Below, piece by piece: positions 32,010 to 59,801 of a DNA stretch of 64,000 bases (positions are counted from its first letter, which is position 1; every line of letters begins with the position of its first letter). Location of the stretch: positions 1 through 64,000 of the IMG/VR virus record IMGVR_UViG_3300023202_000034. One strand, given 5' to 3'. The notes under the pieces were generated by a model. That model saw only the letters and a program-made list of their open reading frames with translations, ran no database searches and was not told the origin of the DNA. The stretch is from a virus. A program made the position numbers and the translations under genes.

Positions 32010-35000
32010 ATGGATATAATGGATGAACTTGGTTCCCTTCTTAACGATAAAAGCACGCCTCTTGATCGCGTAATACAACGGCGGAATCAGAAAGAGCAAG
32101 ATGTTATTGATGCCGCGTTTAAAAACGTTGAAGCCCTGGATCGCATACATAAAGCCAACGAACGTCGGTTGCAGCCGGATGCCCAAGTAGGTGCACTGGG
32201 CACAGACTCTGATACGGTTCGTTTAGGTGTCGGTGGTGCAATGAGTGGTACAGGTTCTGTGCTTGCAGCTCCTGGCTGGATACTGGACCAGGCCGGTCAA
32301 CTTATTGAATCTGGTTTAATGGCAGCAGGTCTGGAAGATCAAGTACGCGCAGTCAACCAGAAGTTTGTTGATTGGGGTATCTCCGCACCCAGTGAGGCCT
32401 TCAAAGGTGTAGGCGGTTGGCTGAAAGAAGGCGGTCAAGAACTCCAGAAAGCCGTGGATGCTTCCACACAATACTCCTTTGACCAGAGTACACCTACTGG
32501 TGACATCACCGATACGTCCAGTTGGTCATTGGGCGAGAACCCTTCTCTGGAAGGTTATGGTTTGCAGCTGACGAAGATCCTGGGGGAGTTTGCTCCGCAG
32601 GCAGCAGGCCTGGTAGCCCGAAGTCCAGAGAAAGCCATGCAGATCATGGGTGCTATTGGTGGTCTGCAAGCCGGTGAAGGTCAAGCCTCTGACACCGTGG
32701 ATGCCATTATGCAGATGGATGAAGCCACGCTCACAGAAGCTTCTGACCTGTACCGGGAACTGCGCGAAGACACCCCAGAACTTACCCACGAACAAGCCCA
32801 GCAGGAAGTTGCACGTACCGCAGGTGCTGCGTCTTTCATGGGGGGTGCTTTGGTAGGTACAGCGGGTGGTGCAGCCACCGGTTATATCCTCAAACCTCTT
32901 CAAGGCAAACTGCAAGGCAACGTTCTGGGACGTGCTACAAAATCCGTAGGTCTGTCTGCCGGCGAAGAAGCTCTGCAAGAAGTGGGCGAGACCGTTACCG
33001 GACGTGCAGCAAGTAATCTGGCTGCCGGTATGGACCGAGACCTGACCGAAGGTACTTTCGGTGATGCGGTACTGGGTGGTTCCTTTGGCGGTGGTTTGGG
33101 TGCACTGGGTACCACGGCCGATGAAGTAGGACGTATTGCTGAGAAAGTCTCAGCAGCCATGCCTCAGACTGATTTCAGTACCAAAGAGAAAGACATTGTT
33201 GCGGCAGCAGAGTCTGGCAACATCGATAAGTTCCTTGATCCAGAAGACAAGAAGAACTACTCCCCCCTGAATGCCCTTGGCGCCATGGTCATTCGTGCCC
33301 GTCGTGATGATGTGCCGGAAGCTGAAAAGCGTGAACTGAAAGCTTCTATGCAGAACATGATCACCACGCTGGAGCAGGATGCCGTCAAACTGCAACGCCA
33401 GATTGATCAGCATCTTCCTGAAACTATTGAGTCCACGCGGCAGAAACTTCAAACCCGGGAACAGAAGCTGGCAACAGCCGAGACTGAACAGGAACGTGTT
33501 CAGCTACGTGATGACATTGAGTTCCTGAAAGAATCCCTGGATGCCATTGAGAACGTTGATCCCAAGCGCATTAAAGCCATGGAGGCTGAGCTTAAGGGGA
33601 TCAACTCTCAGATCAGTGAAGCTCAGGCCATGTTTTCCCAGGTCCCAGGAGCAGAGGCCACTGCAGACGATGTGGATGCCCTGAAAGCCACTGCCGGCAT
33701 TACCCCAACAGATGCACCGGTATCGTCTACAGAACGTACCCAGGCCGCTAAAGAGCTGACCATAGTGGCTATGCAGAATCCGGATTTGCTGAGTACACAG
33801 GACGTTGAAACCCTGGTAGGGGATGACACCAATGGCTTGTCAGAAGATGACCGACAGTTCCTGCGTACTCTGTCCCAAGCACAGCTTGCCGCGAATCTGG
33901 CTCAAGACATGACCGGAGCACGCCGAGGCGTCATGCAAGGCACAGACGGTTTTATAGGCATTCGCCAGTATCAAGCACGCATGGCCAATGCTGTTAGGGC
34001 CAAAAATGACACGGTGGCCAAAGCCCAGCTCACTGGTTTGCGCAAGTTCCGGGAAAGTCATGAAGCCAAGGCTAACGTATTTGAGAAGGCACTGGAGCAA
34101 ACCAATAAGACTGGTAAGCCGGTGATTGTTGCCCGGGGCAAAGGACACACTGATTGGAAAATCACCCAGCGTAAGTCGTTGACCGATACTTTCCGGAACT
34201 TCGGGGCTATCCGTATTCGCCCAGACTCTACACGGTTGGTGGCTACCGTTGCACAAGAGAGGGAAGCTCTGAAGGCCGCTGAAGCCATGTTAAATGCAGC
34301 CTATACCTTGGGCTTCTCTCAGAACGCATCCGTCACAGAACAGCCGGAGGCTGTCTCCGACACGCCAGAATCCACTGAATCTCCAGTAGCAGAGGAAACC
34401 GTCAATGAGTCAGAGCAAAGCGAAGCGCCCGAACCGGAATCCGTGGAAGCAACACCAGAAACGTCTGAAGCAGAGCCAGAGCCGACGCAGGCAGCAGAAC
34501 CTGTTGCAGAGCCCACACTCAGAGAGCGGGTTGAACAACCTGAGTCAGGTACTGACGGAGAGGTAGAGGCTGAGCTGGAACCGGTAAACCCGGAACCTGA
34601 ATCAGAGGTACCGACCGAGGCGGGCGAAGTCCGCTACGAGGAAGGTACCTTGGCTGTGTTTAAACAAAAAGCAGCAGCAATCACCGGCAAGTTAACCGAT
34701 GAAGCCTTCCGTAAACTCAACCTGGTTCGGCAGTACTTTACCCAAACCAGTAAGAAAGACTCGGATGTGACTGAACGGCCCTTGGTAGTTCAGAAGGATT
34801 TCCTGTCTGCGTTGATTCAGGATGAATCCGTTGCCGATCTGTTCGTGGATGCACGACGCTACGGTAGTTTTGACGGTTCTGGTTTGTCTGAAGCGCAGTA
34901 TGCCGCCATACGTGACTTTGCATCCAAGGCAAAAGACTGGAACGAATATCTGGAAACAGAACTGATTAACTACGATATCAAGGAACAGTTCTACTATCGT

Positions 35001-38000
35001 GATCTGTTCCACCATCTGCGTGATGGTCAGCCAACCGAGGAGAACATCAAGACAGCGATCTCTTATGCGGCATACTCTTGGCTGATTGATAACGCCAGCA
35101 GACCAGCACTGGCCACCGACGAAGAGATCAATACCATCCTGCATCGTCGTCCGGAACACGAAGTCATAGACACTGAGCGGGCTGAGTTTGGTTATATCGG
35201 CACCTCGGACAAGTTGGTGATCAATACGCTGGGTCAAAAGGTGGTTCAGGCATTAGGTATTCGTGGTACCAAGGATACACCAGCTAACCTGGTGTCCCAG
35301 CTTGAGTCGTCTTTGGGTGTCTACGCTATGCAGTTGCTGGCGGAACAAGAGTTGGTTGAGCGTCACCAGGTTACGAGTGCTTCGTTCTCCAGGGAACCCG
35401 GTGATGCAGACGACGCGACCATCTCGGGGGACTATGTTACACACCCGTTTGTTCGTCTGGCTCGTAAAGAGAACCTCAAGCCGGTTGACGTAATTGAAGC
35501 CATTGGTGTAGCCAACCGTAATACTCAGAGTATTCTGAGCCACCTTATGGGTGTGGAGTCTGGCTCTTTTGAACCGGAGTTTGTGGAGCCTGAATTTAAC
35601 CAGGCGTTCACCAAAGGCACCAAGCAACGGGTACCCAAGCGACAGCAGAAGATTGAAGCCAAGAAAGGTAAATACGCCTATCAGGTACGCAGCACCATGT
35701 TTGGTTTGTGGGATGCACTGGACCTGGGTACCAAACGAACCATCGTAGGTGTAAAGGATCTTGACAACAAAGCCGTGCACAAGGTCAACAAGCTGAGTGC
35801 TGAAGGATTCAACGAAGGCCTTGACCGTGAGATTTTCCTGTTCGACGAATTCGCCAGCAAGGAAGAGCACCGGAACCGTCCGTTCTGGTTAATTGGTAAT
35901 ATCTGGAAGCAGCAACGTGTAGGTCTGAAGAGTAACACCATCAACCCGCAAGCCAGCAAGATCCATCGTTTCCTGGTTTCCATGACAGGATGGAAAGTGT
36001 CTGTAGACACTCGCCTGGATTCACCCAGTAACCGGATGTTCCGACTGAACGTAGCTACTGGCCTGGGTATCAAGACGGATAAACAGGCTGTAGAGACTTC
36101 TCTGAAGCGACTAGATGAGAAGCTGAATGACAATCCAATCTTGCTGGATGCTGTAGAGGTCATTAAGCAGAATCTGCTGGGCGAACCACTCTCCGAAGCA
36201 GAGCAGGCTACCCTGGTGGAGGCAGTCAGGGTGGGCGGTGAAGCCATGCACACGATGGATGCTCTGTTGGGTCTGGCACAGTGGGAGCTGGCCGTTGATA
36301 ACGGAGAATCCAGTTTTGAAACCGATATGATGCTGGAAATCGACGGTGTTACCAACGGCCCCATGCTGGCACAACTCCAGTTGGGTGCAGCACCTTCTGC
36401 CGGGGAACTGAACGAGATCCTGAACAAAGGTGGCATGTACGAGCTGGGCAGTGATTACACCAACTTCAATACCTGGAAAGAAGAAGCCAAGCAACCTGAC
36501 CTGTACGAAACCCTGGCCAAAGACATTGCCGAAGCAATGCAGGCGGTGATTCAGGGAGCCGATGCCTGGAAAGCACAGAACTTTGTTTCTCTGAACCGCT
36601 TCATGGACGGGCTGTTTGACGCTAACAGTAAGAAAGTGACCATCGGACGTAACGCGGTGAAGACTCCGCTTACAGCCATGGTGTTTGGTTCTTCAATCAA
36701 CAACGCCATTAAGAGTATGGCGGAAGAGTTTGTTCAGGGTATCTACGATCGAATTGAAGCAGATGCCAATTTACCAGAAGGTGAACGTTCTGCTGCAACC
36801 AAAGAAACCCTCAAGCACATCAACGCACTGTTGAAACCTGGTTTCAAGAAAGGGGTTACCCCACTCTCTGAGAACATGACGACTGATCAGTTGCTGGAGT
36901 TCACCTTTGATAAGGAGCAACTGAAAACGATCAACGACATGTTCCGCTGGAACGTTGGCAAGCATGTTGAAGGTGTGATGGAACATCGCTTTGGTTTGTT
37001 CATGGGACGTAGAAGGGAGCTGAACCGGGGTGCACAGTTGGCCTTCTACCTGTATGACACTGTGTATCAGTACTACCGTGAAAAAGTAATCAAGGAGTTG
37101 GTTAACTCTGGAGATATCCCGGTCAACGTAACCAAGAACGGTAACACACTGTATCGATATGACCTGACCTCAGCACAAGAGCAGTTGGTGGAGCAGCGTG
37201 TACGTGCGGCCATGCCTATGGTACATACCCCACTGTCCAAAGACAGCAAAGACCTGGGTGCTGGCTTGTTCATCGGCAAGACTGAGCGCAGTGTGGCAAA
37301 GGATGCAGACACAGCCTACACCCAGAAAGTGGAATTCAAAAAGCGTAAAGATAAAACACGGTACGTCGACGGCCGCGGCATGAAACGTCAGATGGTCGAC
37401 CCGGGTATAGCCACCCTGATCATGATGATTCACTCATCGGATAGCGCCATTTCTTCCTATGCGGCAGAACAGTTACAAGCCCTGAACATCCACGATGCTC
37501 ATGGTTTGAGTCTGAACGATGCAGCCGAAGGCGGAAAGAACCTGAACAAGGCGACGTATGAAGTCATGCGTGACTACTCGGCGCCATTGGAAATCCATGA
37601 GGCACTGGTTCGGACAATTCGTGGTTTGAAGTCGCTGGGTGAGGATCTGGTATCTGATCCGGAACTGCGTGAGCGGTTTGTTGCCTTGTCTCAAGAGCTA
37701 CACAAATCCAAACTGAACGGGCTCATTGAGCCGGTTGATGATATCAACCCAGATAACGGGGACGTTTTCCGGTACATCCTGAAGCAGACTGAACGTGCTG
37801 CGTTCGCTTCTGAGTACACCAAACTGCAGAACATGGCTCAGTCCAAAGCGTATAACCAGTACGCCTTTGAAGGTGGGGAATACTTAGTAACAGATGCAGA
37901 TCGTGCCAAAGCTTTGGAAAACCTTGATGCGTTGGATGCTCGTCCAGCTAACAAAGGTGACCGGGATCTCATGGAAGTTCTTTACTCGCTGTTCCCAGGC

Positions 38001-41000
38001 AATGAAGCCTACTCTGCAGAGATTGCGGCTGAGCGTGAAGCGAAAGCGATGGACCCTGAGTCTCTGGCTTCACAGGAAGAAATCGCTGCAGCACTGGACC
38101 TGTGGTTGGCTGACCTCAGTTCTGATGCCGTGAAAGAGCTTACTGGTAACGGTGTGATTGGTGAGGCCCTGATCCAGAAAGGTAGGAACCTCCGGTATAT
38201 CGGCCACCAGTTCAGCTTGCATGGAAACCTGAACCAGGTGTTGGAAGAGTATCTGGATGGTGAAGCCAACGACCCGTTTTCGGAACTGGCTACCTTCAAG
38301 AAGGAATTGATTGCCCGTCTGCGCAACTACTCAGTAAGCACAAAAGACGTGCGATCTGCACCGGCCTCTACCGTGTCTAACTTGATTGATGCGCTGAACA
38401 GTAACAGCGTGATTCAGGCCAATTCGGAGCTCTCTCAGGATCTGGTACTGGTGCAGCAAACGATCAACAGCGGTGTGTATGACGTTGTCGCCAGTATCGA
38501 AAAGATGCTGCCGACAGAACGTGCACAGCAAGTGCTGGCCACACTGAATCGTTATTACAACAGTGGTCGGGAACATCGGTTTGGGCTCCTGGGTGCACCA
38601 TACCTTTCTCAGGACTCGGAGTTGGTTGCGTTTCTGGAGAAGAACCCGCAGACGACCACCAAGGAATTGATTGGTGCCATGAAGTCGGCCCTGAAGAAAC
38701 GGAACAAAACGAGTGGACTGTCCCAATACGACCGCTTCATCAACCAAATGCTGAATCTGTTGTCAGGCTCGCTGCCAGGAGATACCAAGGTAGAACTGCT
38801 GACTGCGAACTCTGAAACCGCATTTGGTTACGCCTCCATGGAGATTGTGGAAGCATCGGCGGCATACTTGCCGGGAGTGGGCATCATGGTGAAAAACACC
38901 GATTTCCAAAACGCTTCCGTTACCTACGAAACCCTGACGCACGAGATGATTCATGCGGCGGTTGTGGGGATTACCCGCAAAGCATTGCAGGGTGGGACGG
39001 TTATCCGTGGGGAAGAGTTGGTCACCGAGCAGGTGGTAAGTGACGAAACGGTTCAACTGGTCAAAGAACTGGAAGCCCTGCACGGCGAAGCCAAGAGATT
39101 CCTGGAAGAGCAGGGCGGTGCTTTGGCAAGCCGTTGGGCCTATGCCACCAGCAACCTGGATGAGTTCATTGCCTTCGGTATGTCCAACCAGGATTTCCAG
39201 AATGACGTATTGAAGAAACTTACCGTTGCCGATAAAGGTCGGGGCAACAAGCTGATCGACGGTATGACTGCGTTCATCAACAAACTGGTGGGCATCCTGT
39301 TCGGTAAGAACGCGCCGGCAGATAAGCGCAATGGTTTGTACCAGATGGTGGCGAACACCACTGCCCTTATGAAAGCGGCTCGGGAAGACGCGCAGAAGAC
39401 GCGTGGTATGGAGCTTCCAAAAGGTAAGCCGGAAGTTATTGCCATGCAGGGGCCGGACCCATTGGAGGAAGCCAAGACACTGACCAATGAGCAGGTGTTT
39501 GATCGACTGGCGGGTAACGCGCTGTCAGCGGATCGTCAGACTCACCTCAAAGAACTGCTCAACAGTATTGTTGAGAAACTCCATGGGCCTATGGGTGCCC
39601 TGGGTGCTCAGTTGCGTCAGGAAGCTGCCTACGGACCGGAGGACCGCTACCTTGAGAACCTGGTGAATGGAACTCTGCCGTTCTACTCCCGGACCCTTGG
39701 GGCTGAGCTGAAGATGACTCAGGCTGAAGGGTTTGTATTGGAGCAGGTTGAAATGACAGTGCGTGAAGCCCTGAACAGTGACCGTGCTGCGTATGAAGGT
39801 ATGGCCAAGTTGTTCCGGGAAGCACGGACACAGATTCGTCCGGAAGATCTGCCGGCCGGCGCACACAAGTTTATCTTCACACCTCAGAAGCAGGACGGTG
39901 AATCCACCTCAGATTACCTGAGTCGATTTGCTGCCCTGTCCCTGGTGTACAAACCACTGAACGACAAGATGCAGTTTGCCACGGCAAAGACGGTCCCGAG
40001 CTTGCGAGGCAAAAAACTGGGTGAAATCGTCAAGACGCTCTTTGCCCGCATATTAGAAATCCTGAACGGAAAGATGACCAACACCTTTGCCGGTCAACAA
40101 GCGGATGCCAAGGCAGTCAGCCTGGTGCGTCAGCTGGTGAACAATGAGGCCAAGTACCGGGAATCCGCAGCACTGAGAAAACAAACCTTGGACAACGCTG
40201 AGAAGGGTGCTTTCCAGAAGCTTTCCGATGCAGCCAGGGAAAAGGCAACCCAGTTTGCGGAATCCAACCCGATTGCCAATAACAGTAACGTGTTTGTGCG
40301 TTCTTTCGGAGTGATAACTTCAGCTGTGGCCAATGACCGTGTGCGGGAACTGTTCGACGGATTGGAAGATGTCAGGAACAAGATCTATGCCGGCCAACGC
40401 CAGGGCATCTGGGCAGCAGTGGCTACGGAATTCAAAGGTGCCAATGAGACCAACCTGACCGCGCATCAGCTGTTGCGTATTGCCAAACACAATGAGCAGA
40501 CGCGTAAAATCGTTAAGGAACAGATAGCCAAAGGGGTACTGGAAAGCTTCGATCCAAACCACAAACTAACTGACCTGGAAAAGAAATCCCTGACCAAGGT
40601 GCTGTTGCGTACTGATATGACGGCACTGCTGGGTGATGGTGATTCTGGTTTGGGTACCTACGACCTGACGACGCTGACACGCATGGTTTCCGATGAACAA
40701 TTTCTGGATTCCGAGATCAAGAAACTGGAGAAGGCCATTGCCCGGGAGCAAAGTAACACCCGGTACTATGTGGCCCAAGCCAGAAACACCGGGTACTTCC
40801 TGGCAACGGGACGGAATGCCAGCGCCAACCTGATGCAGAACGCACATAGCATTGTGTACCTGACAGGTACCGGTAACAAACGTAACAAGCCCAGCTTTTC
40901 ACACGCAAAGACTCTGGAACCCATGGTGGATCGTCTGATCTCCCTGAACGCGTTGAAATATACCGATGGGGAACTGCGAGACGTTGCGGCCAATGTCATG

Positions 41001-42911
41001 AAACGTGAGCTGTCCCGGGGCACTGAAAGCGGTATCGAGATGGTTCTGAAAACGCATGAGCGGCTGAAGCGTGAAGCCATGGACAAGCTGTTTGATGACG
41101 GCCCTGCGTTGTTCCGTAAAGGCTACACCAAGGAAATATACGATCCGTACAAGGAGGTAGTACTGGCGCCGGTGAGTGAGCGGGACGATCTGATCAAGCG
41201 TGGGTATGTCCCAGGAGCTGTTCTGGAGCAAGATCCTGCGGACCCGGATCGTCACAATCCCAAGCAGTTGTTCGTGATGCACGATGCAGGGCTCAAGAGC
41301 CGAGTGACAGGAATCTATTCAAATACCGACATGCGGGTACGGGGTACCACCATTCACTCTGGTTTGCAGTCGGTGTCCGGTGAAGGGCTGGTCAGCGTCC
41401 GTCAGGATATGAATACTCAGGTTGCTGCAGCACTGAATTCAGATATCCAGGCATTGTTTACGGCACCGGATAATTACAATCCTGAGCGGGTAACCGGTGC
41501 CAGGATGGCACCTGTCGTCAACAACATGGGCCAGATTGTGAACTATCGGTACATGATGCAGGAGAAAACAAAAGACCTACTGTTGAACCGTAACAATGCC
41601 CTGGAAGAGATTCTGGGTGGTATGGCGGCCAACATCGTAGACAAGGTCTCCAGTCGGGAGCATAACAACCGTGCGGTTGAAGCCATGCATCAACAGTTCC
41701 GGGAAGAGTCTCCGTTACGTCCGCATGCGTTTGTTCGGGTAAGTGCAGAGAGTGAAGACCCTACCGTGCGTGAAGCATGGAATCTGATACCTGAAGGTAC
41801 CAAGCATCATATTCGTAAAGTGTGGGGAAGAAATGAAATGTGGGTAAGGGCAGATCTGTATGACCTGCATTTTGGGTACCGCAAGCTGAGCTTGACAGAC
41901 CCCTGGAAGGTGGCAGAGGACGAGCGTTCTGTCCAGCAAGCCATGGTGGTTGCGACGTTTGAAGCGTTCCTGGGTAAGAAAGCCGCAATGCGCCTGGCGA
42001 AGGCTGAGAACATTTGGGAGGAGTTGGTACGGGAAGTGAAAGATATCTGGGTGATCAAGAGTGTGGTTACCTTGATTGTCAACATCAGCAGTAACGTCAC
42101 TGAGTTGTTCTGGTTTGGGGTGAACCCACGCAACATGCTCCGGGATCACCGGGAAGCGTTGCAAGGTATCTTGTCATACCAGCGGGACTCCAACGAGAAA
42201 ATCCAGTTGGAGAACATGCTGGCGTCTGGTTACATGACTCAGCCCCCTGAAGAAATTCAGGCTCGCCTGGTTGAGCTGGAAGATTCCATTAACCGGAACC
42301 CAGTGAAGGAACTGGTCGATGCAGGCATCTTCCAAACCATTGTTGAAGACGTAGATGCAGAATCCAGTGATTACAGCTACAAGTCCAGACTGTTCCGGAG
42401 AGTTCAGGGGCTGACGGACAAGCTACCAGAGACAGTAACTGCTACAGGTAAAACACTCTATATGGCCCATGACACTCCGCTGTATAAGCTGATGTACCAG
42501 GGAACGTCTTTGAGTGACTTCACCGCCCGTTATGTGCTGTACAAGCACCTGACTACTCGTGATGTAGAACCTATGGCCAAGGAAGAGGCCATCCAGACCA
42601 TCGTAGACGCCTTTGTGAACTACGACATTCCGACACACAAGGGTTTACAGTACATTAACGATATGGGGATCATTCCTTTCACCAAGTACTACATCCGGAT
42701 TCAGAAGGTACTGATGACGTTGTACCGGGAGAACCCAGCCAGAGCATTGGCAGTAGCAACCTTTGGTTGGTTCTTCGACAGCATGGGTGTACTGACAGAC
42801 TCCGGTATCTGGAACAAGGCAGACAACCCACTGGGTAATGGCGCCTTTGACTACATTGATGCAGTAGGTGACATTGGTACAATCAAAGCAGCAATGTCTA
42901 TTGCAGGGTAG
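32010..42911 (+). CDS. Virion-encapsidated RNA polymerase (N4 gp50-like)
   Basis: 3633 aa; motif A EIDGVTNGP, motif B RNAVKTPLTAMVFG, motif C NIHDA; no Cys seen, as in N4 vRNAP. Confidence 0.96.
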   Translation: MDIMDELGSLLNDKSTPLDRVIQRRNQKEQDVIDAAFKNVEALDRIHKANERRLQPDAQVGALGTDSDTVRLGVGGAMSGTGSVLAAPGWILDQAGQLIESGLMAAGLEDQVRAVNQKFVDWGISAPSEAFKGVGGWLKEGGQELQKAVDASTQYSFDQSTPTGDITDTSSWSLGENPSLEGYGLQLTKILGEFAPQAAGLVARSPEKAMQIMGAIGGLQAGEGQASDTVDAIMQMDEATLTEASDLYRELREDTPELTHEQAQQEVARTAGAASFMGGALVGTAGGAATGYILKPLQGKLQGNVLGRATKSVGLSAGEEALQEVGETVTGRAASNLAAGMDRDLTEGTFGDAVLGGSFGGGLGALGTTADEVGRIAEKVSAAMPQTDFSTKEKDIVAAAESGNIDKFLDPEDKKNYSPLNALGAMVIRARRDDVPEAEKRELKASMQNMITTLEQDAVKLQRQIDQHLPETIESTRQKLQTREQKLATAETEQERVQLRDDIEFLKESLDAIENVDPKRIKAMEAELKGINSQISEAQAMFSQVPGAEATADDVDALKATAGITPTDAPVSSTERTQAAKELTIVAMQNPDLLSTQDVETLVGDDTNGLSEDDRQFLRTLSQAQLAANLAQDMTGARRGVMQGTDGFIGIRQYQARMANAVRAKNDTVAKAQLTGLRKFRESHEAKANVFEKALEQTNKTGKPVIVARGKGHTDWKITQRKSLTDTFRNFGAIRIRPDSTRLVATVAQEREALKAAEAMLNAAYTLGFSQNASVTEQPEAVSDTPESTESPVAEETVNESEQSEAPEPESVEATPETSEAEPEPTQAAEPVAEPTLRERVEQPESGTDGEVEAELEPVNPEPESEVPTEAGEVRYEEGTLAVFKQKAAAITGKLTDEAFRKLNLVRQYFTQTSKKDSDVTERPLVVQKDFLSALIQDESVADLFVDARRYGSFDGSGLSEAQYAAIRDFASKAKDWNEYLETELINYDIKEQFYYRDLFHHLRDGQPTEENIKTAISYAAYSWLIDNASRPALATDEEINTILHRRPEHEVIDTERAEFGYIGTSDKLVINTLGQKVVQALGIRGTKDTPANLVSQLESSLGVYAMQLLAEQELVERHQVTSASFSREPGDADDATISGDYVTHPFVRLARKENLKPVDVIEAIGVANRNTQSILSHLMGVESGSFEPEFVEPEFNQAFTKGTKQRVPKRQQKIEAKKGKYAYQVRSTMFGLWDALDLGTKRTIVGVKDLDNKAVHKVNKLSAEGFNEGLDREIFLFDEFASKEEHRNRPFWLIGNIWKQQRVGLKSNTINPQASKIHRFLVSMTGWKVSVDTRLDSPSNRMFRLNVATGLGIKTDKQAVETSLKRLDEKLNDNPILLDAVEVIKQNLLGEPLSEAEQATLVEAVRVGGEAMHTMDALLGLAQWELAVDNGESSFETDMMLEIDGVTNGPMLAQLQLGAAPSAGELNEILNKGGMYELGSDYTNFNTWKEEAKQPDLYETLAKDIAEAMQAVIQGADAWKAQNFVSLNRFMDGLFDANSKKVTIGRNAVKTPLTAMVFGSSINNAIKSMAEEFVQGIYDRIEADANLPEGERSAATKETLKHINALLKPGFKKGVTPLSENMTTDQLLEFTFDKEQLKTINDMFRWNVGKHVEGVMEHRFGLFMGRRRELNRGAQLAFYLYDTVYQYYREKVIKELVNSGDIPVNVTKNGNTLYRYDLTSAQEQLVEQRVRAAMPMVHTPLSKDSKDLGAGLFIGKTERSVAKDADTAYTQKVEFKKRKDKTRYVDGRGMKRQMVDPGIATLIMMIHSSDSAISSYAAEQLQALNIHDAHGLSLNDAAEGGKNLNKATYEVMRDYSAPLEIHEALVRTIRGLKSLGEDLVSDPELRERFVALSQELHKSKLNGLIEPVDDINPDNGDVFRYILKQTERAAFASEYTKLQNMAQSKAYNQYAFEGGEYLVTDADRAKALENLDALDARPANKGDRDLMEVLYSLFPGNEAYSAEIAAEREAKAMDPESLASQEEIAAALDLWLADLSSDAVKELTGNGVIGEALIQKGRNLRYIGHQFSLHGNLNQVLEEYLDGEANDPFSELATFKKELIARLRNYSVSTKDVRSAPASTVSNLIDALNSNSVIQANSELSQDLVLVQQTINSGVYDVVASIEKMLPTERAQQVLATLNRYYNSGREHRFGLLGAPYLSQDSELVAFLEKNPQTTTKELIGAMKSALKKRNKTSGLSQYDRFINQMLNLLSGSLPGDTKVELLTANSETAFGYASMEIVEASAAYLPGVGIMVKNTDFQNASVTYETLTHEMIHAAVVGITRKALQGGTVIRGEELVTEQVVSDETVQLVKELEALHGEAKRFLEEQGGALASRWAYATSNLDEFIAFGMSNQDFQNDVLKKLTVADKGRGNKLIDGMTAFINKLVGILFGKNAPADKRNGLYQMVANTTALMKAAREDAQKTRGMELPKGKPEVIAMQGPDPLEEAKTLTNEQVFDRLAGNALSADRQTHLKELLNSIVEKLHGPMGALGAQLRQEAAYGPEDRYLENLVNGTLPFYSRTLGAELKMTQAEGFVLEQVEMTVREALNSDRAAYEGMAKLFREARTQIRPEDLPAGAHKFIFTPQKQDGESTSDYLSRFAALSLVYKPLNDKMQFATAKTVPSLRGKKLGEIVKTLFARILEILNGKMTNTFAGQQADAKAVSLVRQLVNNEAKYRESAALRKQTLDNAEKGAFQKLSDAAREKATQFAESNPIANNSNVFVRSFGVITSAVANDRVRELFDGLEDVRNKIYAGQRQGIWAAVATEFKGANETNLTAHQLLRIAKHNEQTRKIVKEQIAKGVLESFDPNHKLTDLEKKSLTKVLLRTDMTALLGDGDSGLGTYDLTTLTRMVSDEQFLDSEIKKLEKAIAREQSNTRYYVAQARNTGYFLATGRNASANLMQNAHSIVYLTGTGNKRNKPSFSHAKTLEPMVDRLISLNALKYTDGELRDVAANVMKRELSRGTESGIEMVLKTHERLKREAMDKLFDDGPALFRKGYTKEIYDPYKEVVLAPVSERDDLIKRGYVPGAVLEQDPADPDRHNPKQLFVMHDAGLKSRVTGIYSNTDMRVRGTTIHSGLQSVSGEGLVSVRQDMNTQVAAALNSDIQALFTAPDNYNPERVTGARMAPVVNNMGQIVNYRYMMQEKTKDLLLNRNNALEEILGGMAANIVDKVSSREHNNRAVEAMHQQFREESPLRPHAFVRVSAESEDPTVREAWNLIPEGTKHHIRKVWGRNEMWVRADLYDLHFGYRKLSLTDPWKVAEDERSVQQAMVVATFEAFLGKKAAMRLAKAENIWEELVREVKDIWVIKSVVTLIVNISSNVTELFWFGVNPRNMLRDHREALQGILSYQRDSNEKIQLENMLASGYMTQPPEEIQARLVELEDSINRNPVKELVDAGIFQTIVEDVDAESSDYSYKSRLFRRVQGLTDKLPETVTATGKTLYMAHDTPLYKLMYQGTSLSDFTARYVLYKHLTTRDVEPMAKEEAIQTIVDAFVNYDIPTHKGLQYINDMGIIPFTKYYIRIQKVLMTLYRENPARALAVATFGWFFDSMGVLTDSGIWNKADNPLGNGAFDYIDAVGDIGTIKAAMSIAG

Positions 42912-52801: not shown

Positions 52802-55800
52802 TTAGATTTCGCAGGCACCCCCACTGCACGCCTGAGCGCCGGTGGTATTGATATCGACATACTTGGGTTGTGTGAGTACCGCGGTAAAGTCGATGGGCTT
52901 CAGAGACCGCTCAATGGCCTTCCAGCGGTGCAGGTTGTACACGTCCTTGAGGCAATCGGTGGTGGCCTGGAGGTCACCTGAGAAATACCGTTCTGCAAAT
53001 TGCAGCGCACGACGTACCCAGTCCCGCTTCAGAAGATCGTGAGAGCCATGCTGCGACAGGTTCTTACCTTTCTCCGTGGCTTCAAAGCAGGCTGCCCAGA
53101 GGTCACTGTTGAAGGCATGCAGGCCATCGACCAGCAAACCCGAGGCAAACATGGCGGCATCACCGTACTTGGTATAGATCTCATCACCGGTCAGGACTTC
53201 CTGGAACGGGGCTTGGGGATACGCCTTGTCGCCGCCTTTGGCCAGCAGGGATACCCCGGCAAACCACTGACGATTGTCGTACAGATACTGCTCGACCTCG
53301 TCCCAGTCATCGACTGAAATGGTATTGGAGACGTTGTGACGTAGACGTTTATCCACGCAGAACTCATCCGCAGTACCATACTCTACCCAGAACTGTTGGG
53401 CTTTCTTGACATAATCCAGTTGCTTCACACCCAACAGATCCCGTTTGAAAATGGAACCTTCCTTGGCAATCAGCGGGAAGCTGACCATCTTATCGGTACC
53501 GGTGGCCGACCAAACAGAGTCTTCAACCATTTCCGGATTCTGGCGGATGATCTCTTGCAGGCCTTCATCCATTTCGTTCATCTGCATGTTGCGGAAGAAG
53601 CGAGGTGAGTGTTCACCGTGAATACCTGAGGAGGTCCCGAGCATGACGGAGGCATTACCACTGGGCTTGACACAAGTTGTCCGTGCGGCCGGGTTGATAC
53701 CTAACAGTTTGGCCATGATCTCATTGGTTTTGCGGACTTCCAGGGCGCCGGCTTGCATGTTGAACTCGTCGAACAGTACGTCCGGGTTGTTCATCCAGCC
53801 AGTGATGGAGACACCAATAAGGGCTTCACGTTCTACAATGGACTGGGTAACCCCGTCATCGTCCATGTGAGGAAAGTGGGTGTACCCAGCTTGCAGTGTA
53901 CCGATGATGGAGCCAGCTTTGGCTGCAATCAAAAGATCTTCCAGGGTGTTGCACTTGGAACCGTTGATTTCGGAGAGGTTACACATCTGCCAGCCAGAAC
54001 GGCCTTGTGCATCGTAGCCTCGCATACCGATTTCAACACAGGGATTGAATACAAATTCCAGATCTTCTGTGAAGATAAAACCAGGCTCACCAAAGTCACG
54101 GACAGACTTCATGATGTGAGCCCACTCTTCCCGGGTCAGCTCGTCACGCTTGAGAACGACGGAGTTGTTGGATCGTCCCCGTTGTGGGTTCTCGTTGAAC
54201 CAGTTACCGGTCTTGGCGTTCAACATCTCCTGATCGTCTTTGCTGAACATACAGATGGTGGCTGATCGACGTACACCGCCACTGAGGACCGCATCAGCCA
54301 GGTGCATGACAATGTCGTACACATGGATGGGTCTGAGGCGATTACCTTCTCTGGTGGCTCTCTGGAGCAGTTCTTCGACCTTTGTCAGAGAACTCCGTAA
54401 ACCATCAGGTCCGGGTGCTTTGAAGCCACCGGAAATCAGTGCACCTTTTGGACGAATCAAGCCATAGTCAAAGTTGACGTGATAACCCTGGTACTCTGGT
54501 TTGGGGGCATCGGATTCCAGGAAAGAAGAGATCAGGGCATGCACTGCATCTTTCCAGCCTTCAATACTGTCCTCAATGACGAACAGCTTACTCTCGGAAC
54601 TGCGTGCTTTGATGTTGGGCAACTTGGCAACGTGGTGCTTCTGCACGGAGAAGCCAGCACCTGTACCGCATAACAGCAGATATAGAGCCTGACCAAAGAA
54701 GATCGATCGATCGGCGTAGGTCGCTGCACAGTTACCTGTTACCACTCCGTTGGGCATGATGAACGAACGGTCTTGATTTACTTCTAAGCACCAGGCAATA
54801 CCGGATTTTACGGCTGGCTCGATTGCTTTGACCTTCCAGCCTGCATTGTATTTGGAGCCCATATTATCTGAAGTACGGAAACTAATTGTGTAAGGACGTT
54901 TTCCTAAGTTGGTTTGCTGATCAGTAAGATCAGTCTCAGAAATAATCCAGACTCCAGCGATAGGGAAACATTTACGTATAAAATCAATGTGATCCGTATC
55001 TGAGCATTGAATTGAAGTGTACCGGGTACCGTGGTTATTACGGCTTTTCTCACCATCTGCTTGAAGATAACCGGCAACAAATGCTCGGACCATCTCAGGG
55101 GAATCTACAGAAGGATCTGGGGCGGTTTTTAGGTAGGTACCCGTGTAAGCATACGCATCACCTTTTAGCGAATCGTGCGTCCCTGTTTTGAAGCCCATTT
55201 CCTCAAAACGTTCTACAAACCGAGCATCTTTTCCACAAAGCCTGATCATGGAGTAAGTATGTGTCCCGTTTTTCTTAACACGGGTACCGTCCCCATAGAC
55301 CATCCCATAACACCAGTAAAGGCGTTCTGTAGGTGTTGCTAAGTCGTAATCAAACTCACCGAATGCGTTTTGAGGTTTCAGTAGGTTATCGCCTACTGAA
55401 AGGGTGGTGGTTTCAGAACCATCCTTGAGTAACCATCTGTGGTCAGATGTAGCAAAAACTTCCGTTTCATTAGTTCCTTTACAGAGGGTGATGCGGTTAA
55501 ATTTTTGATGCCCGTAGGAGCGGACAATTGCTTTTTGCCACTTACCTGTGTGGGAAGCAACAACCACTTCTTCACCGTCCTTACAATCACGAAAAGACCT
55601 GACACCTGCAGAGGTTACGAACTGCTCGGCTTCGTCAAAACAGTTGTAGACCTTGGCTTCGTGCTTGAAGATCTGATCACCACCAAACTGCAGTGTCCGT
55701 TGTGCCGCCAGCAGACGCTGGTCGAGATAGGCGTCTTCAGCAAACTGGATCATTTCTTCCAGTTCTGGTGTCATACGGTCTGCGTACTTTGTGCGGTGCA

Positions 55801-55957
55801 TGTTCATGACACGCTTGACTGCTTGTTCCCAACTTTCAAACGCTGCTACATCTTCTTGCCAACGGGAATAGTCCATAAAGAACTTGGCATCCTGCATCAT
55901 GGTTTGACCAATGCCCTTGGCAATAGGCGATTTATCAAACGAAAGGATTTCTCCCAT
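52802..55957 (-). CDS. nrdJ: Class II (B12-dependent) ribonucleotide reductase with intein (747 aa after splicing)
   Basis: GTGAGFSV, SGGVRRSA, NPCVEI, CNLSEIN, TCVKPSG, C-terminal CSGGACEI; no beta subunit gene in the window. Confidence 0.88.
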   Translation of the reverse strand: MGEILSFDKSPIAKGIGQTMMQDAKFFMDYSRWQEDVAAFESWEQAVKRVMNMHRTKYADRMTPELEEMIQFAEDAYLDQRLLAAQRTLQFGGDQIFKHEAKVYNCFDEAEQFVTSAGVRSFRDCKDGEEVVVASHTGKWQKAIVRSYGHQKFNRITLCKGTNETEVFATSDHRWLLKDGSETTTLSVGDNLLKPQNAFGEFDYDLATPTERLYWCYGMVYGDGTRVKKNGTHTYSMIRLCGKDARFVERFEEMGFKTGTHDSLKGDAYAYTGTYLKTAPDPSVDSPEMVRAFVAGYLQADGEKSRNNHGTRYTSIQCSDTDHIDFIRKCFPIAGVWIISETDLTDQQTNLGKRPYTISFRTSDNMGSKYNAGWKVKAIEPAVKSGIAWCLEVNQDRSFIMPNGVVTGNCAATYADRSIFFGQALYLLLCGTGAGFSVQKHHVAKLPNIKARSSESKLFVIEDSIEGWKDAVHALISSFLESDAPKPEYQGYHVNFDYGLIRPKGALISGGFKAPGPDGLRSSLTKVEELLQRATREGNRLRPIHVYDIVMHLADAVLSGGVRRSATICMFSKDDQEMLNAKTGNWFNENPQRGRSNNSVVLKRDELTREEWAHIMKSVRDFGEPGFIFTEDLEFVFNPCVEIGMRGYDAQGRSGWQMCNLSEINGSKCNTLEDLLIAAKAGSIIGTLQAGYTHFPHMDDDGVTQSIVEREALIGVSITGWMNNPDVLFDEFNMQAGALEVRKTNEIMAKLLGINPAARTTCVKPSGNASVMLGTSSGIHGEHSPRFFRNMQMNEMDEGLQEIIRQNPEMVEDSVWSATGTDKMVSFPLIAKEGSIFKRDLLGVKQLDYVKKAQQFWVEYGTADEFCVDKRLRHNVSNTISVDDWDEVEQYLYDNRQWFAGVSLLAKGGDKAYPQAPFQEVLTGDEIYTKYGDAAMFASGLLVDGLHAFNSDLWAACFEATEKGKNLSQHGSHDLLKRDWVRRALQFAERYFSGDLQATTDCLKDVYNLHRWKAIERSLKPIDFTAVLTQPKYVDINTTGAQACSGGACEI
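54731..55642 (-). mobile_element. Intein with LAGLIDADG endonuclease in RNR, 304 aa
   Basis: VYN|CFDEAE...ATSDHRW...VVTGN|CAATY; YGMVYGDG and AGYLQADG. Confidence 0.92.
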
Positions 55958-55982
55958 AAATAACTCCTGAAAGGTATGAGAT

Positions 55983-56009
55983 AAAAAAGGGCCAGAGATT
56001 TCTGGCCCT
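55983..56009 (-). terminator. Intrinsic terminator between thyX and nrdJ
   Basis: AGGGCCAGA-AAUC-UCUGGCCCU then U tract. Confidence 0.7.
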
Positions 56010-56059
56010 ATAAGGGAACGGACTATGTAATCAGAAGTAAAACAGGTTTGCCTGTTTAT

Positions 56060-56487
56060 TTAGTCTACAAGTGCCGACCAAGAGACTGGATAAAGTGGTC
56101 TGATAATCTCATCCCATTGTTTAGCCAGGTCTTGGATTTCTTTTTGGGCATGAGCATCACTGCGTTGAATATACGCGTTGGCCCAGGCATAGAGTGAGCC
56201 GGTTACCCAGTAGGTTGTAAGCATGGATTGAGGCAGAACCATCCTGGCCTGTTCGGGGGCAATGCCGCGATTGATCATCTGGGTATAGAGCAGGCGAGCG
56301 TCTTCAACGAAGTTCTCATACTCGGACTTCCAGTACCCCTGTTGAGTGTCGGAGACACCTCCACCACTACCTTGCTTAATGCCACCGACTGGACGGGCAC
56401 GCCAGACTTCCGGCTCGTGAAACTCCGGCGTATCATCCACATAGCGACGACTTATCTCGTTATAGGTGAAACCAACCATGTGTTTGA
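56060..56487 (-). CDS. thyX: Flavin-dependent thymidylate synthase, exon 2
   Basis: KHMVGFTYNEISRRY, APEQARMVLP, HAQKEI; spliced product 248 aa. Confidence 0.9.
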
Positions 56488-57309
56488 CTTTATCTTCGAT
56501 GGGGAGCGTTAATCCCCACCCGTTCTCTTATGAACTGCTGCATGTTTCCATGCAGAAGAGACTATATCATCACCCTATTTCTAGGGGCTGGGCGCTTCCA
56601 CCAGACTTCTGGTGTACTTCCTCACGGAATAGTCGTTGAACCTTCTCTGCAAGTTCTACAGAGCTTGGCTGCTGATTGCCCTCGTCTTTCTCGTTAGGGG
56701 TTTCCAGCAATTCACCCAGTTCTTCCTCTATGAATTGCTTCATAGGGCGGCTTAAGCTGTATTCGCCTTTAGCTTGATCAAACTCAATAAGACCCATTTT
56801 GACCAACGACATAGACAGTGTTTCAAGCTGTGCATGTACGTTTCGGTGGTGGGCCATATTGTCACAGAGGTACAGATTTGTTGGTCTGAAGTCCTCTTTG
56901 TCACCGTTTACATGATGTACCTTTTCCTGTTTGGTAACTAATCGACCAATAAGATCGCTCATTACCAGACGATGGACAGGCATGTATCCATGGTTTGTGT
57001 TGGTTTTACCTACCCACACCATCGGGTAACCGTCTGAGTGCGTATAGATATTGCCAATGTTCTTGGGCTGTTGTTTGTACCCTTTATTCCAGGGTGTCTT
57101 TCCCAAGTTGGTCAGTTTGTTGCTACAACGGTAACAACGGTGAACGTCTTTTTTATAAGCGTTCCAGTAACTGACACGTTTTTCATCACCACAGTCATCA
57201 CATATACGGGTAACTTGATCGCCGGCTCTATCTTTCAACATACTACTTTTCCTTTGTTTGTTGCTTGATAAATGAGCCTAGCATAGCTATCGACAAATAA
57301 CAGAAGTTT
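56488..57309 (-). mobile_element. Group I intron (822 nt) with HNH ORF in thyX
   Basis: P1 CGGU|AAA...UUUGUCG with U.G; P7 CGACUA/AUAGUC; ends GAUAAAG; joining gives ARQRFKHM. Confidence 0.9.
56570..57241 (-). CDS. Intron-encoded zinc-finger HNH endonuclease
   Basis: CDDC/CYRC; VHRLVM...VHHVNGDKEDFRPTNL; C-terminus reads through the ribozyme core. Confidence 0.85.
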   Translation of the reverse strand: MLKDRAGDQVTRICDDCGDEKRVSYWNAYKKDVHRCYRCSNKLTNLGKTPWNKGYKQQPKNIGNIYTHSDGYPMVWVGKTNTNHGYMPVHRLVMSDLIGRLVTKQEKVHHVNGDKEDFRPTNLYLCDNMAHHRNVHAQLETLSMSLVKMGLIEFDQAKGEYSLSRPMKQFIEEELGELLETPNEKDEGNQQPSSVELAEKVQRLFREEVHQKSGGSAQPLEIG

Positions 57310-57628
57310 ACCGTTGCCTGGCTACAAAGATCGGGACGGTTTCCCGCATGGAGATCATGGCGTGAGAGAACGGTGTCCAATGAGTGGGCATGTTCTTGGC
57401 CCACTTGAGCGTGGCTTCAATTTCTTCACAGGCATACGGATTTTCTGTCTGGTCTTTAAGGCGATCAATTGCATTGTCCCAATCGGACTTCATACATCCA
57501 CGGGCCAGGAATTGAATTAAGCCATAATCCTTTTCAGTCAATTCTTTGGATACAGCGTTGAAGGAGACCCTTGCGGCGTTCGTGACTGTTAAATCCGACC
57601 CCATATGGTCTAAGTACTCAGCTAACAT
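57310..57628 (-). CDS. thyX: Flavin-dependent thymidylate synthase, exon 1
   Basis: DHMGSDLTVTNAARVSF, HWTPFSH, PIFVARQ; GAGGA RBS inside the HNH 3' end. Confidence 0.9.
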
Positions 57629-58154
57629 AATACAATCCTCTTACTACTTTGTTGATAACAGTACGGGATACTCCATACTGTTCAGTGAGTTGTTTGGTAA
57701 ATCCTCTAGGTGCTCTCTTACCGTTTAGTGAGGCGTAGGCGGCTTTAATTTCCTGGACTTGCGCAAGAGATAATTTGGCGTTACGGGGTGTTATCCCTTG
57801 AGCAGCTCGGGCCTTTTGGGCTGCTTGCTTACGGGAAAGTGGACACTTATCCATCTGGTTTTGTGAACTACTTCCAAGAAGGATATTGTCCTTGCTGAAA
57901 TCGAGAGTGTCCCCATTCCTGTGACGCACTTGTATATTTTCTACAAATGCAGCTTCACCATAAAACTGGTATGCAGCAAACTGGTGTATAGGAATGCCAT
58001 AAACCATCCCTCCCCAGTTAGTAGAGAACGTGGGGTACCGTTGTTTACCATGGCAACCAATTTTCAAAGGACCTTTTGGACCGATGAGTTGGTTCCCCTC
58101 TACACGATATCCTCGGGCTACAGCTTCTACGATGCGTTGTTGTGTTTTCGTCAT
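57618..58154 (-). CDS. Free-standing HNH homing endonuclease
   Basis: IHQFAAY...VRHRNGDTLDFSKDNI...QNQMD; C-terminal HTH. Confidence 0.85.
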   Translation of the reverse strand: MTKTQQRIVEAVARGYRVEGNQLIGPKGPLKIGCHGKQRYPTFSTNWGGMVYGIPIHQFAAYQFYGEAAFVENIQVRHRNGDTLDFSKDNILLGSSSQNQMDKCPLSRKQAAQKARAAQGITPRNAKLSLAQVQEIKAAYASLNGKRAPRGFTKQLTEQYGVSRTVINKVVRGLYYVS

Positions 58155-58205
58155 AATAAATCTCCAGAGTGTCGAAGCTATAATGCAGAGTTTACAACAA
58201 CAAAG

Positions 58206-58274
58206 CTAAATTATTATGGCTGCGTTCACGGTTGTAAGGTCTGATCCCATATGATCGAGGTATTCAGCAAGCAT
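58206..58274 (-). pseudogene. thyX: Orphaned 5' stub of thyX (22 codons)
   Basis: MLAEYLDHMGSDLTTVNAAIII*; 17/19 aa identical to the thyX start at 57628. Confidence 0.88.
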
Positions 58275-58380
58275 TGTGTATTACCTGTTTGGTTTGATTA
58301 GAGACTCCTGCATAAAAAACAGCAAGCCATTAAAGTAGGGGGTAACATAACCAGTATTGATTTTGGGTCGGAGACTATAT

Positions 58381-58740
58381 ATGACTACCCCTTTATTTGA
58401 AATATACCGTGGTGATGATTATGCCTTTCGGGTCATTATCAAGGATGAAACTGGTACGCCTGTTGATATAACAGGTTGGGAATTCATGGCAACCATGAAA
58501 ATTGATTTCACCAAAGGTGATGAAGAAGCTCCGGTGAAAGTAAATATTGGTCCTATGTCAGGTACAGGTGCTGAACAAGGTGTTTGTTTCCTAGTACTTC
58601 CGCATGAACAGACACAAAATCTTTTGGCACCATCGGTGTACTTCTTCGATCTGCAGCGTGTCTTCAATGGAATCGTGACCACCGTAATTAAAGGACGTGT
58701 ACGTGTTCATGAAGACATCAGTCGGAGGACGGAAGCATGA
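58381..58740 (+). CDS. Tail fibre attachment/adaptor protein
   Basis: IYRGDD...PVDITGW...YFFDLQ...TVIKGRV pattern typical of fibre N-terminal adaptors. Confidence 0.65.
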   Translation: MTTPLFEIYRGDDYAFRVIIKDETGTPVDITGWEFMATMKIDFTKGDEEAPVKVNIGPMSGTGAEQGVCFLVLPHEQTQNLLAPSVYFFDLQRVFNGIVTTVIKGRVRVHEDISRRTEA

Positions 58741-59801
58741 GTACAGTTCAGGATATTGAAGTTCAATTCGCTGTCCCGGCTATGGATGTACAGACTGGTA
58801 CCTACGGCAAGATCGTTCTGACCGCTGTACTGCAGACAGTCCCTGCAGAAACTGTGATCTATAACGAGGAGCTGCGTCAGTACATTGAGAACATTAAGCT
58901 GGAGATTTCTGAATCTGTTGAGAAGATCACTCAGGATCTGTCGGTCGATGTAACTGGTCGATTAGGTTACCGTTTTACTGTGAACTCTCAGGCTGGCAGC
59001 TCCTATACCTTGACGCTGGAGGATGAAGGTACCTTGGTTCGGATGACTTCCAGTCAGGAAAACCAGGTGATTATTCCTGATGAAGCAACCGTTCCTTTTG
59101 AAGTGGGAACCATTGTAAATCTTCGTCGATCTGGGATAGGTGAGACTGTCGTTGTTCCTGCACCCGGCGTGGTAGTAAATACTCCTGATAGTACGATGAA
59201 GATCGACGACAAGAATCTGGGGGTAGGGCTGGTCAAAGTCGGTCCGGATGAGTGGGATCTGGTGAAGTCTTTCACCGGTGTACCCATGAGTGAGGTTACG
59301 CAACTTATCGATGATATCGAGGGTGCAATCACTGCACAGGATGAAGCGCAGACTGCCCTGGATGACAGGGTTTCGGATATCAATGATACCCTGGCATCTA
59401 CGATTGACACTGTGAATCAAACGCTGACTGAGTCTGTCAACAGTGCCATTGCCAAAGTGGAGAAAGCCATAGAGGACTTGGGTAACGTAGCAACACTTTC
59501 ACAGTTTGGGAGTCTGAAAGACGATACCGGCTACCAAAGACTGCCTGGTGGGTTGATTTTGCAATGGGGTAAGACCGCGTTACTCAATAAAGATGAAATG
59601 GTGACTGTCTTACTGCCAGTATCTTTTCCGAATAAAGCATTGAATGCACAAGCTACAACAAACAGTACGACTACCGATGACAATGATGCAATTGCTCGTG
59701 TGATCTCTTTTACTTCCACAAACATACGTGTACGTAACGAAGGGGCGAATAGAAAATCTTCGTCCTCAGCAGTAATTCACTGGTTTGCGGTAGGGTATTG
59801 A
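58737..59801 (+). CDS. Tail fibre protein
   Basis: Coiled-coil middle; C-terminal GYQRLPGGLILQWG...PVSFPN...WFAVGY domain. Confidence 0.82.
   Translation: MSTVQDIEVQFAVPAMDVQTGTYGKIVLTAVLQTVPAETVIYNEELRQYIENIKLEISESVEKITQDLSVDVTGRLGYRFTVNSQAGSSYTLTLEDEGTLVRMTSSQENQVIIPDEATVPFEVGTIVNLRRSGIGETVVVPAPGVVVNTPDSTMKIDDKNLGVGLVKVGPDEWDLVKSFTGVPMSEVTQLIDDIEGAITAQDEAQTALDDRVSDINDTLASTIDTVNQTLTESVNSAIAKVEKAIEDLGNVATLSQFGSLKDDTGYQRLPGGLILQWGKTALLNKDEMVTVLLPVSFPNKALNAQATTNSTTTDDNDAIARVISFTSTNIRVRNEGANRKSSSSAVIHWFAVGY

Follow-up and report, generated by a model that had tools for sequence, protein, structure and literature searches.

A free-standing HNH endonuclease gene between two copies of the thyX 5' end in a metagenome-assembled virus

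Homing endonucleases are thought to persist in essential genes by means of introns or inteins, or to sit between genes. The thyX locus of IMGVR_UViG_3300023202_000034, a metagenome-assembled virus with a record of 72,964 bp, raises the question of how else an endonuclease gene may be accommodated within a conserved gene. The window, i.e. the whole stretch analyzed here, comprises positions 1 to 64,000 of this record; all positions refer to it, and the thyX locus resides entirely on the minus strand. In this locus, a free-standing gene for an HNH endonuclease (HNH-1) is preceded by a short stub of thyX and followed by a thyX gene that starts anew with a second 5' end. The anatomy of the locus, its recurrence in other lineages, the linkage of the endonuclease to thyX, the lack of a splicing element and the orthologue-level divergence of the two 5' ends are direct observations. 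As the probable explanation we propose that HNH-1 is a member of a clade of I-HmuI-like homing endonucleases that are free-standing, are resident at the 5' edge of thyX and cut near the codons for an N-A-A-R motif, the stub being the severed 5' end of the recipient gene left behind by one-sided or illegitimate repair.

In the direction of transcription, the locus begins with the thyX stub (58206..58274), which runs from an ATG at 58274 to a TAG at 58206 and consists of 22 codons, the first 19 of which are native-type thyX codons, followed by I-I-I-stop. Its translation is MLAEYLDHMGSDLTTVNAAIII up to the stop codon, corresponding to MLAEYLDHMGSDLTTVNAA-III-stop, and we read it as a relic of the recipient's thyX 5' end. 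A spacer of 51 nucleotides (nt) separates the stub stop from the HNH-1 ATG (58155..58205) and contains GGAG at 58165-58162 as the ribosome-binding site (RBS) of HNH-1. The latter (57618..58154) is a separate open reading frame (ORF) with its own RBS and stop codon and encodes an I-HmuI-like protein of 178 amino acids (aa) with a Pfam HNH_3 domain. The RBS of the restarted thyX, AAGAGGA (57636..57642), is embedded in the HNH-1 coding sequence 8 nt 5' of the restart ATG at 57628. The latter is situated 11 nt within HNH-1, such that the last 11 nt of this ORF overlap with the thyX start. From here, thyX reads MLAEYLDHMGSDLTVTNAARVSF... and its codons 1-19 (57572..57628) constitute the replacement N-terminus. 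A first-pass annotation of this DNA, made from the sequence alone, had already described the 22-codon stub, the free-standing HNH gene and a restart with RBS and ATG inside the HNH 3' end, and its description is confirmed to the base. Its further statement that neither a ribozyme core nor intein motifs are present was borne out as well. An Rfam scan of 55800-58600 at E<=1 returned no match other than a group I intron located about 300 bp downstream in thyX, which served as positive control (RF00028, 100 bits, E 4.6e-26, 56799-56538), and the same threshold did not reveal a ribozyme in five further loci from the HNH-1 clade, namely L032 and four stub-bearing ones. A group I intron or another RNA family was consequently rejected for the first interruption (58205-57629), for which RF00028 gave no match at E<=1 as opposed to 100 bits for the second interruption. 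An intein at the first interruption was rejected because the stub ends in TAG, the 51-nt spacer comes next and HNH-1 and thyX are placed in different frames.

How do the two 5' ends relate to each other? Stub and restart are identical in 17 of 19 residues, 10 of these 17 are specified by different codons, exactly as counted before, and 17 of the 57 nt differ, resulting in an identity of 40/57 nt (70% nt / 89% aa). The peptide EYLDHMGSDL occurs exactly twice in a six-frame translation of the 64-kb window, once in the stub and once in the restart, which excludes chance. The first-pass annotation considered the synonymous recoding a special feature of the replacement copy, a view that is not supported: thyX orthologues from different phages of the group share 36-45 of the 57 nt and exhibit 6-11 synonymous-different codons, such that 40/57 nt and 10 codons fall within the ordinary range. 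L007, a separate genome, compares to either copy in the window with 17/19 aa, 42/57 nt and 9 synonymous-different codons. As the divergence between stub and restart equals that between orthologues of different phages, there is no reason to assume a purpose-built recoding, and the most plausible reading of the restart is that of a xenologous, i.e. foreign, thyX 5' end that was brought in together with the endonuclease gene. Differences that are nearly all silent are the signature of two alleles, each under selection as a working gene in separate genomes; they do not resemble the in-place decay of a dead copy, nor do they amount to recoding above the normal level.

The arrangement is not restricted to the window. 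Searches with HNH-1 and family alignments in IMG/VR, metagenome contigs, species genomes and phage records, with duplicates merged, yielded a thyX-linked HNH clade of 13 lineages with 38-63% identity to HNH-1. In all ten lineages with readable downstream sequence (the window, L026, L031, L032, L033, L035, L037, L040/L021, L045 and Curvibacter phage P26059A), thyX directly follows the HNH gene; for L036, L038 and L039 the contig ends before the region downstream of HNH. The thyX ATG resides 11-38 nt inside the HNH ORF in 7/7 cases checked. It is situated within the conserved Tyr-Tyr/Thr-Ala/Val codons of HNH in the window, L026, L032 and L033, and the same ATG is present in L031 and L035. The conserved overlap of the HNH 3' end with the thyX start makes the two one physical unit of long standing and, with the thyX RBS and ATG lying within the last codons of HNH, the endonuclease gene is passed on jointly with the thyX 5' end. 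When phage records were searched with HNH-1 by tblastn, five records were found, of which only Curvibacter phage P26059A (40%) is thyX-linked, and no convincing stub was found in this phage. The HNH frame in L040:2405-3688 (identical to L021) enters thyX without a stop, both in a Paenibacillus-labelled genome contig and in an identical viral contig, which may represent an HNH-ThyX fusion or point at internal thyX initiation. A distant HNH relative (36%) is encoded in L047:1459-2022; here a Cys-rich C-terminus replaces the helix-turn-helix and there is no thyX within 1.4 kb downstream, such that L047 appears to mark the edge of the thyX-linked clade.

A thyX stub 5' of HNH is present in five of the 13 lineages. 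In the window, it ends with …TTVNAA, followed by III and the stop codon ahead of the 51-nt spacer. The stub of L026 ends with …NVVNAAR, followed by SNK and a stop that overlaps the HNH ATG, while that of L031 reads …NVINAARVVYNA… (NAARVVYNA..) and its stop overlaps the HNH GTG. As in both cases the end of HNH also overlaps the thyX start, no non-coding room is left. In L035, the stub ends with …PIVNSA and is fused in frame to HNH, and in L037 it terminates with …TVVNAARIVNA and a stop, followed by a spacer that is partly homologous to that of the window. The restart retains its RBS, ATG and all conserved residues in all five stub-bearing lineages. The stubs, on the other hand, look like decaying relics because the Asp of Y-x-D-H-M-G is replaced in three of them (Cys in L026, Gly in L031 and also in L037), while intact functional copies keep it, with Glu in the L037 restart as the only exception among those listed. 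The earlier proposal that an HNH gene has invaded thyX with a replacement N-terminus therefore needs to be divided. The part that concerns an HNH inside thyX without splicing, with the gene restored by a second intact 5' end overlapping the HNH, is sustained by the recurrence of this layout in L026, L031, L035 and L037. The part that treats the stub as a constant component of the element cannot be upheld in view of the eight stub-less lineages and of a clean insertion in L021.

HNH-1 scores 29.2 bits with Pfam HNH_3 (gathering score as cut-off, 24.8) over residues 56-101. A family profile search resulted in a match to I-HmuI from Bacillus phage SPO1 (PDB 1u3e) with an E value of 3e-4 that spans the HNH core and the C-terminal helix-turn-helix. 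For the AlphaFold model of HNH-1 (predicted local distance difference test score, pLDDT, 84), 1u3e ranked first in Foldseek with a probability of 1.00 over 169 aligned columns; the global TM-score between model and 1u3e is only 0.40, which we attribute to a differing domain orientation in an elongated protein that wraps around DNA. I-HmuI is thus the best match by profile and by fold, with similarity extending from the N-terminal part that binds DNA through the HNH core to the C-terminal helix-turn-helix, and with 174 aa versus 178 aa it is also of similar size. I-HmuI is an intron-encoded nicking endonuclease. HNH-1, in contrast, is located outside of any intron and is only 18% identical to it. 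Residues H78, N90 and N99 are invariant in 11 family sequences.

Where does the enzyme cut? All five stubs end at the N-A-A-R codons or up to about 8 codons beyond. One close pair with and without HNH is available, in which L021/L040 differ from L017/L018 by a 537-nt insertion 18 nt before the thyX ATG; the left flank is 91% identical, and the insertion is clean, intergenic and placed just 5' of the thyX RBS. A run of five consecutive nt that falls exactly on the Arg-Val codons differs in L021/L040, where NAAKT is encoded as opposed to NAARV in L017/L018. The Arg codon is AGR in 4/7 restarts but in only 1/13 HNH-less copies and stubs, a bias with a Fisher p of 0.03 that stems from a small sample and ignores phylogenetic non-independence. 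Restarts also exhibit changes from Asn to Asp/Ser or from Val to Thr near NAAR. As the stub ends, the five-nt cluster of L021 and the codon and residue changes of the restarts converge there, N-A-A-R(-V) is probably the cleavage site of the HNH-1 clade, and the changes hint at a restart that is resistant to re-cutting.

As to where the enzyme cuts, why the restart is immune and how the break is repaired, we infer the following course of events. An HNH-less thyX would be cut or nicked at or just past the N-A-A-R(-V) codons, about 60 nt from the start of the gene, while the donor's own thyX would be protected by sequence differences at NAAR(-V). Repair from a co-infecting donor would then copy HNH together with the donor's thyX 5' tract. 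With homologous left flanks, the outcome would be a clean insertion before thyX as in L021. With non-homologous left flanks, the right end would recombine within thyX, whereas the left end, consisting of recipient upstream DNA and codons 1-19, would be joined illegitimately 5' of HNH. Such an illegitimate left junction would create the structure seen in the window, i.e. native stub, HNH, foreign restart and native body. Once formed, the stub could provide homology on the left side in exchanges between close relatives, and it could be co-opted for HNH translation, either via overlap of stop and start (L026, L031) or via in-frame fusion (L035). It is conceivable that the cassette also limits its own recombinational deletion.

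A number of observations weigh against this explanation, beyond the non-independence that affects the AGR bias. Eight of the 13 lineages are without a detectable stub, and left junctions vary, from which it follows that the stub is a by-product and not a defined end of the element. Stub and restart of the window share 39/57 and 37/57 nt with L003, respectively, and 42/57 nt each with L007. The nearest thyX relatives reach a protein identity of only 66-78%, and neither copy is closer to them than the other. A near-identical genome with an empty site was not found, and the stub is for this reason presumed to be the native sequence. A comparison of the window restart with L003 yields 61% DNA identity before codon 17 (31/51 nt) and 82% after it (94/114 nt; codons 18-55, window 57464-57577), and would place the boundary of a mosaic exchange at the NAAR site; this contrast is weak, as it was reached by 133 of 2000 codon shuffles. 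Identities of HNH and thyX co-vary among the HNH-bearing loci (e.g. 74/73, 63/61), which would fit long co-residence as well as frequent mobility, and much of the history may be vertical. In favour of the explanation, the four closest thyX relatives of the window compared (66-78% aa) are without HNH, and such a patchy distribution would fit the gain of HNH in the lineage of the window. A final objection is that the catalytic His is preceded by an Arg (R77) that does not vary among 11 family sequences, at a position where I-HmuI carries what we take to be a metal-binding Asp, and catalysis by HNH-1 is for this reason likely but not assured.

Other explanations have to be measured against the same evidence. 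The virus is metagenome-assembled and one might suspect an assembly chimera that joins the thyX 5' ends of two strains. This has next to no chance of being correct, as a Logan contig of 72,840 nt that was made independently differs at no position over 55900-58800 (it may stem from the same source sample and is not fully independent in this respect), and as the same architecture is present in unrelated samples and assemblers. The same thyX gene hosts one group I intron with HNH, and the Rfam group I model does not span every subgroup. It could therefore be argued that an unrecognised self-splicing intron, or another RNA or protein splicing element, joins the stub to the thyX body and that the restart is incidental. 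We hold this to be extremely unlikely, not only because Rfam found nothing at E<=1 in the cassette of the window and the five other loci, but also because L026 and L031 lack non-coding sequence at either end of HNH, because the stop codon of the stub and a frame arrangement differing from that of HNH are at odds with an intein, and because the restart is intact (RBS, ATG, conserved residues) in 5/5 cases while the conserved Asp is lost in 3/5 stubs.

Two further scenarios accept the absence of splicing and interpret the duplicated 5' end differently. In the first of these, the thyX 5' end was duplicated in tandem in situ, HNH was inserted later and the copies diverged in place without involvement of any foreign end. 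The protein identity between stub and restart (17/19) indeed exceeds that to most relatives, a tie being observed only with L007. However, L007 is a separate genome that is just as identical to both copies, the divergence between stub and restart is the same as between orthologues of different phages, and 10 synonymous-different codons stand against two replaced residues, whereas a decaying copy should gain mostly non-synonymous changes and indels. Moreover, the overlap of the HNH 3' end with the thyX ATG is conserved across HNHs that are only 54-63% identical, which identifies HNH and restart as an old unit. A tandem duplication is thus very unlikely. The second scenario, which corresponds to the strong version of the first-pass proposal, is that of a designed 'spliceless intron', in which HNH plus a recoded 5' exon form the mobile unit that homes into thyX around codon 19, the stub is its regular left arm, and the recoding has been selected for immunity and against deletion. 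It accommodates the stubs of five lineages ending within a few codons of one another, the homologous spacer 5' of HNH that is common to the window and L037, the stub-driven translation of HNH in L026 and L031 (stop/start overlap) and L035 (fusion) and the unusual codons and residues at NAAR in the restarts. On the other side, the left junction is different in every lineage and 8/13 are devoid of a stub, L021 constitutes a clean intergenic insertion, and the divergence does not exceed the ordinary orthologue level. We regard this scenario as unlikely, and prefer the explanation by resident endonucleases with stubs left by one-sided or illegitimate repair.

The closest functional parallel to such a cassette is found in fungal mitochondria, as had been proposed by the first-pass annotation, and the analogy holds. 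The mORF elements described in PMC3630166 consist of an endonuclease ORF and a foreign C-terminus in atp6, atp9, cox2 and nad3, with the native C-terminus left downstream. Examples given are atp6 of Allomyces macrogynus (cited through PMC3630166) and atp6, atp9, cox2 and nad3 of Glomus sp. (PMC3630166). In the phage as in these elements, a protein-coding gene is interrupted by an endonuclease ORF that is not part of an intron, the displaced end of the gene is substituted in frame by a functional copy of foreign origin, and the native end persists next to it as a relic, the foreign and native origins being probable in the case of the phage. The copies are similar in protein and diverged in DNA in both systems, with 70% nt / 89% aa identity in the phage and 63.5% nt / 91% aa for the Glomus atp6 copies (PMC3630166). 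The phage case differs in being the mirror image, as the replacement concerns the 5' end, including RBS and start codon, and not the 3' end, in featuring an HNH enzyme instead of LAGLIDADG or GIY-YIG enzymes, in being hosted by a phage genome, in the overlap of the replacement start with the endonuclease ORF and in a relic that drives translation of the endonuclease in some lineages. By analogy, the phage cassette can thus be said to work like an mORF element without being a member of the mORF group.

Similarities are also apparent to the free-standing Seg and Mob homing endonuclease genes of phage T4, as they are presented in a review (PMC2988022). These are likewise separate ORFs beside a conserved gene, with a target presumed in the neighbouring gene, and expression signals of the downstream gene are embedded in them, which favours their retention; for T4, the review documents essential expression signals within free-standing endonuclease genes as well as one-sided, illegitimate double-strand break repair during homing (PMC2988022). 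In the cases covered by this review, the endonuclease gene lies between genes or divides a gene into two pieces that both work (mobE/nrdA of Aeh1, mobA/gene 60). thyX, in contrast, is not divided in this manner, but its 5' end is duplicated and replaced; the word stem 'duplicat' is absent from the review (PMC2988022). A full-text literature search (including PMC10448857, PMC2988022, PMC3630166 and PMC8351571; supplements excluded and subscription journals thinly covered) did not reveal a phage endonuclease with a replacement gene end, which is not proof of absence. The phage arrangement of stub, HNH and restart is a new twist on the already known replacement of gene ends by endonuclease elements.

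In this locus and in four further lineages, the host gene is repaired by replacement of its start and not by splicing. It is possible, if rather doubtful, that we are dealing with a regular, undescribed class of phage 'spliceless' homing cassettes, in which an HNH gene that is physically joined to a substitute gene start, comprising RBS, start codon and ~20 codons, directly invades the coding sequence of a conserved gene and the severed start is kept as homology arm and translational leader. If such a class existed, homing endonucleases would have a third route, next to that of introns and that of inteins, of residing in a gene without destroying it, and the cassettes would mirror, in viruses, the mORF elements of fungal mitochondria. 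The arrangement has implications for annotation, as short "hypothetical" ORFs 5' of HNH genes may represent gene starts that were cut off and as start sites of thyX lie inside HNH genes, and also for phylogenetics, as the history of the first ~20 thyX codons may differ from that of the remaining gene. With regard to the evolution of homing endonuclease genes, the positions at which the stubs end suggest the N-A-A-R codons of ThyX as a candidate cleavage site, and the locus would offer a natural phage example of gene-end replacement by one-sided repair, should the repair route be the one that we infer.

The second interruption of thyX was overlooked in the first-pass annotation. It consists of a group I intron of 822 nt (56488..57309) with the ribozyme core match mentioned above, and it carries a second HNH gene, HNH-2 (57241-56570), for a protein of 223 aa. 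As ORFs, the two thyX pieces extend over 57628-57308 (piece A, 106 aa) and 56479-56060 (piece B, 139 aa). Exon 1 (57310..57628) comprises restart and body and ends on the T preceding the intron, and exon 2 covers 56060..56487. Splicing after T57310 and G56488 results in a ThyX product of 248 aa that reads …FVARQRFKHMVGFTYNE… and is colinear with its relatives. A contig of a related phage in run X2 skips 56486-57309 and thus represents the intron-less joint; the only joint in this run for the HNH-1 region, 57398/58304, has unidentified letters in between and is uninformative on the empty site. The four sequencing runs found consist of DNA contigs, none of RNA being listed; X1 may be the source sample, and X3 and X4 yielded nothing of use. 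Megablast against phage records matched the region of intron and HNH-2 to Alteromonas phages AD45-P1 to P4 with a DNA identity of 89.5%, while no match was obtained for the region of stub and HNH-1. The four Alteromonas phages harbour an extra GIY-YIG gene beside the HNH of the intron.

A scan of 55900-58500 for sigma-70 promoters and terminators did not reveal any excess, with 5 versus 4.3 and 4 versus 3.0 expected from shuffles, respectively. A 9-bp GC-rich hairpin followed by TTTTT is found at 55988-56009 on the minus strand, 50 nt past the thyX stop, and is a plausible intrinsic terminator for a transcription unit of stub, HNH and thyX. Downstream, on the same strand (52802-55957), a ribonucleotide-reductase-like protein of 1051 aa is encoded, for which Pfam gave no match at E<=0.001 when the whole protein was analyzed. 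Its residues 107-408 (~302 aa) are absent from the 746-aa homologue of L004. This insert starts with Cys, ends with ...GN followed by Cys and contains the LAGLIDADG-like motif VAGYLQADGE, and it probably represents an intein. An in-frame insertion of ~160 residues with a Cys-rich stretch is present in the 403-aa thyX ORF of L003 (L003:2971-4182), at positions 155 to 318 relative to L004. A further ORF on the plus strand of the window (32010-42911) encodes 3633 aa, presumably the size expected for the virion RNA polymerase of N4-like phages, and together with the 73-kb genome fits the affiliation with the Schitoviridae guessed in the first-pass annotation.

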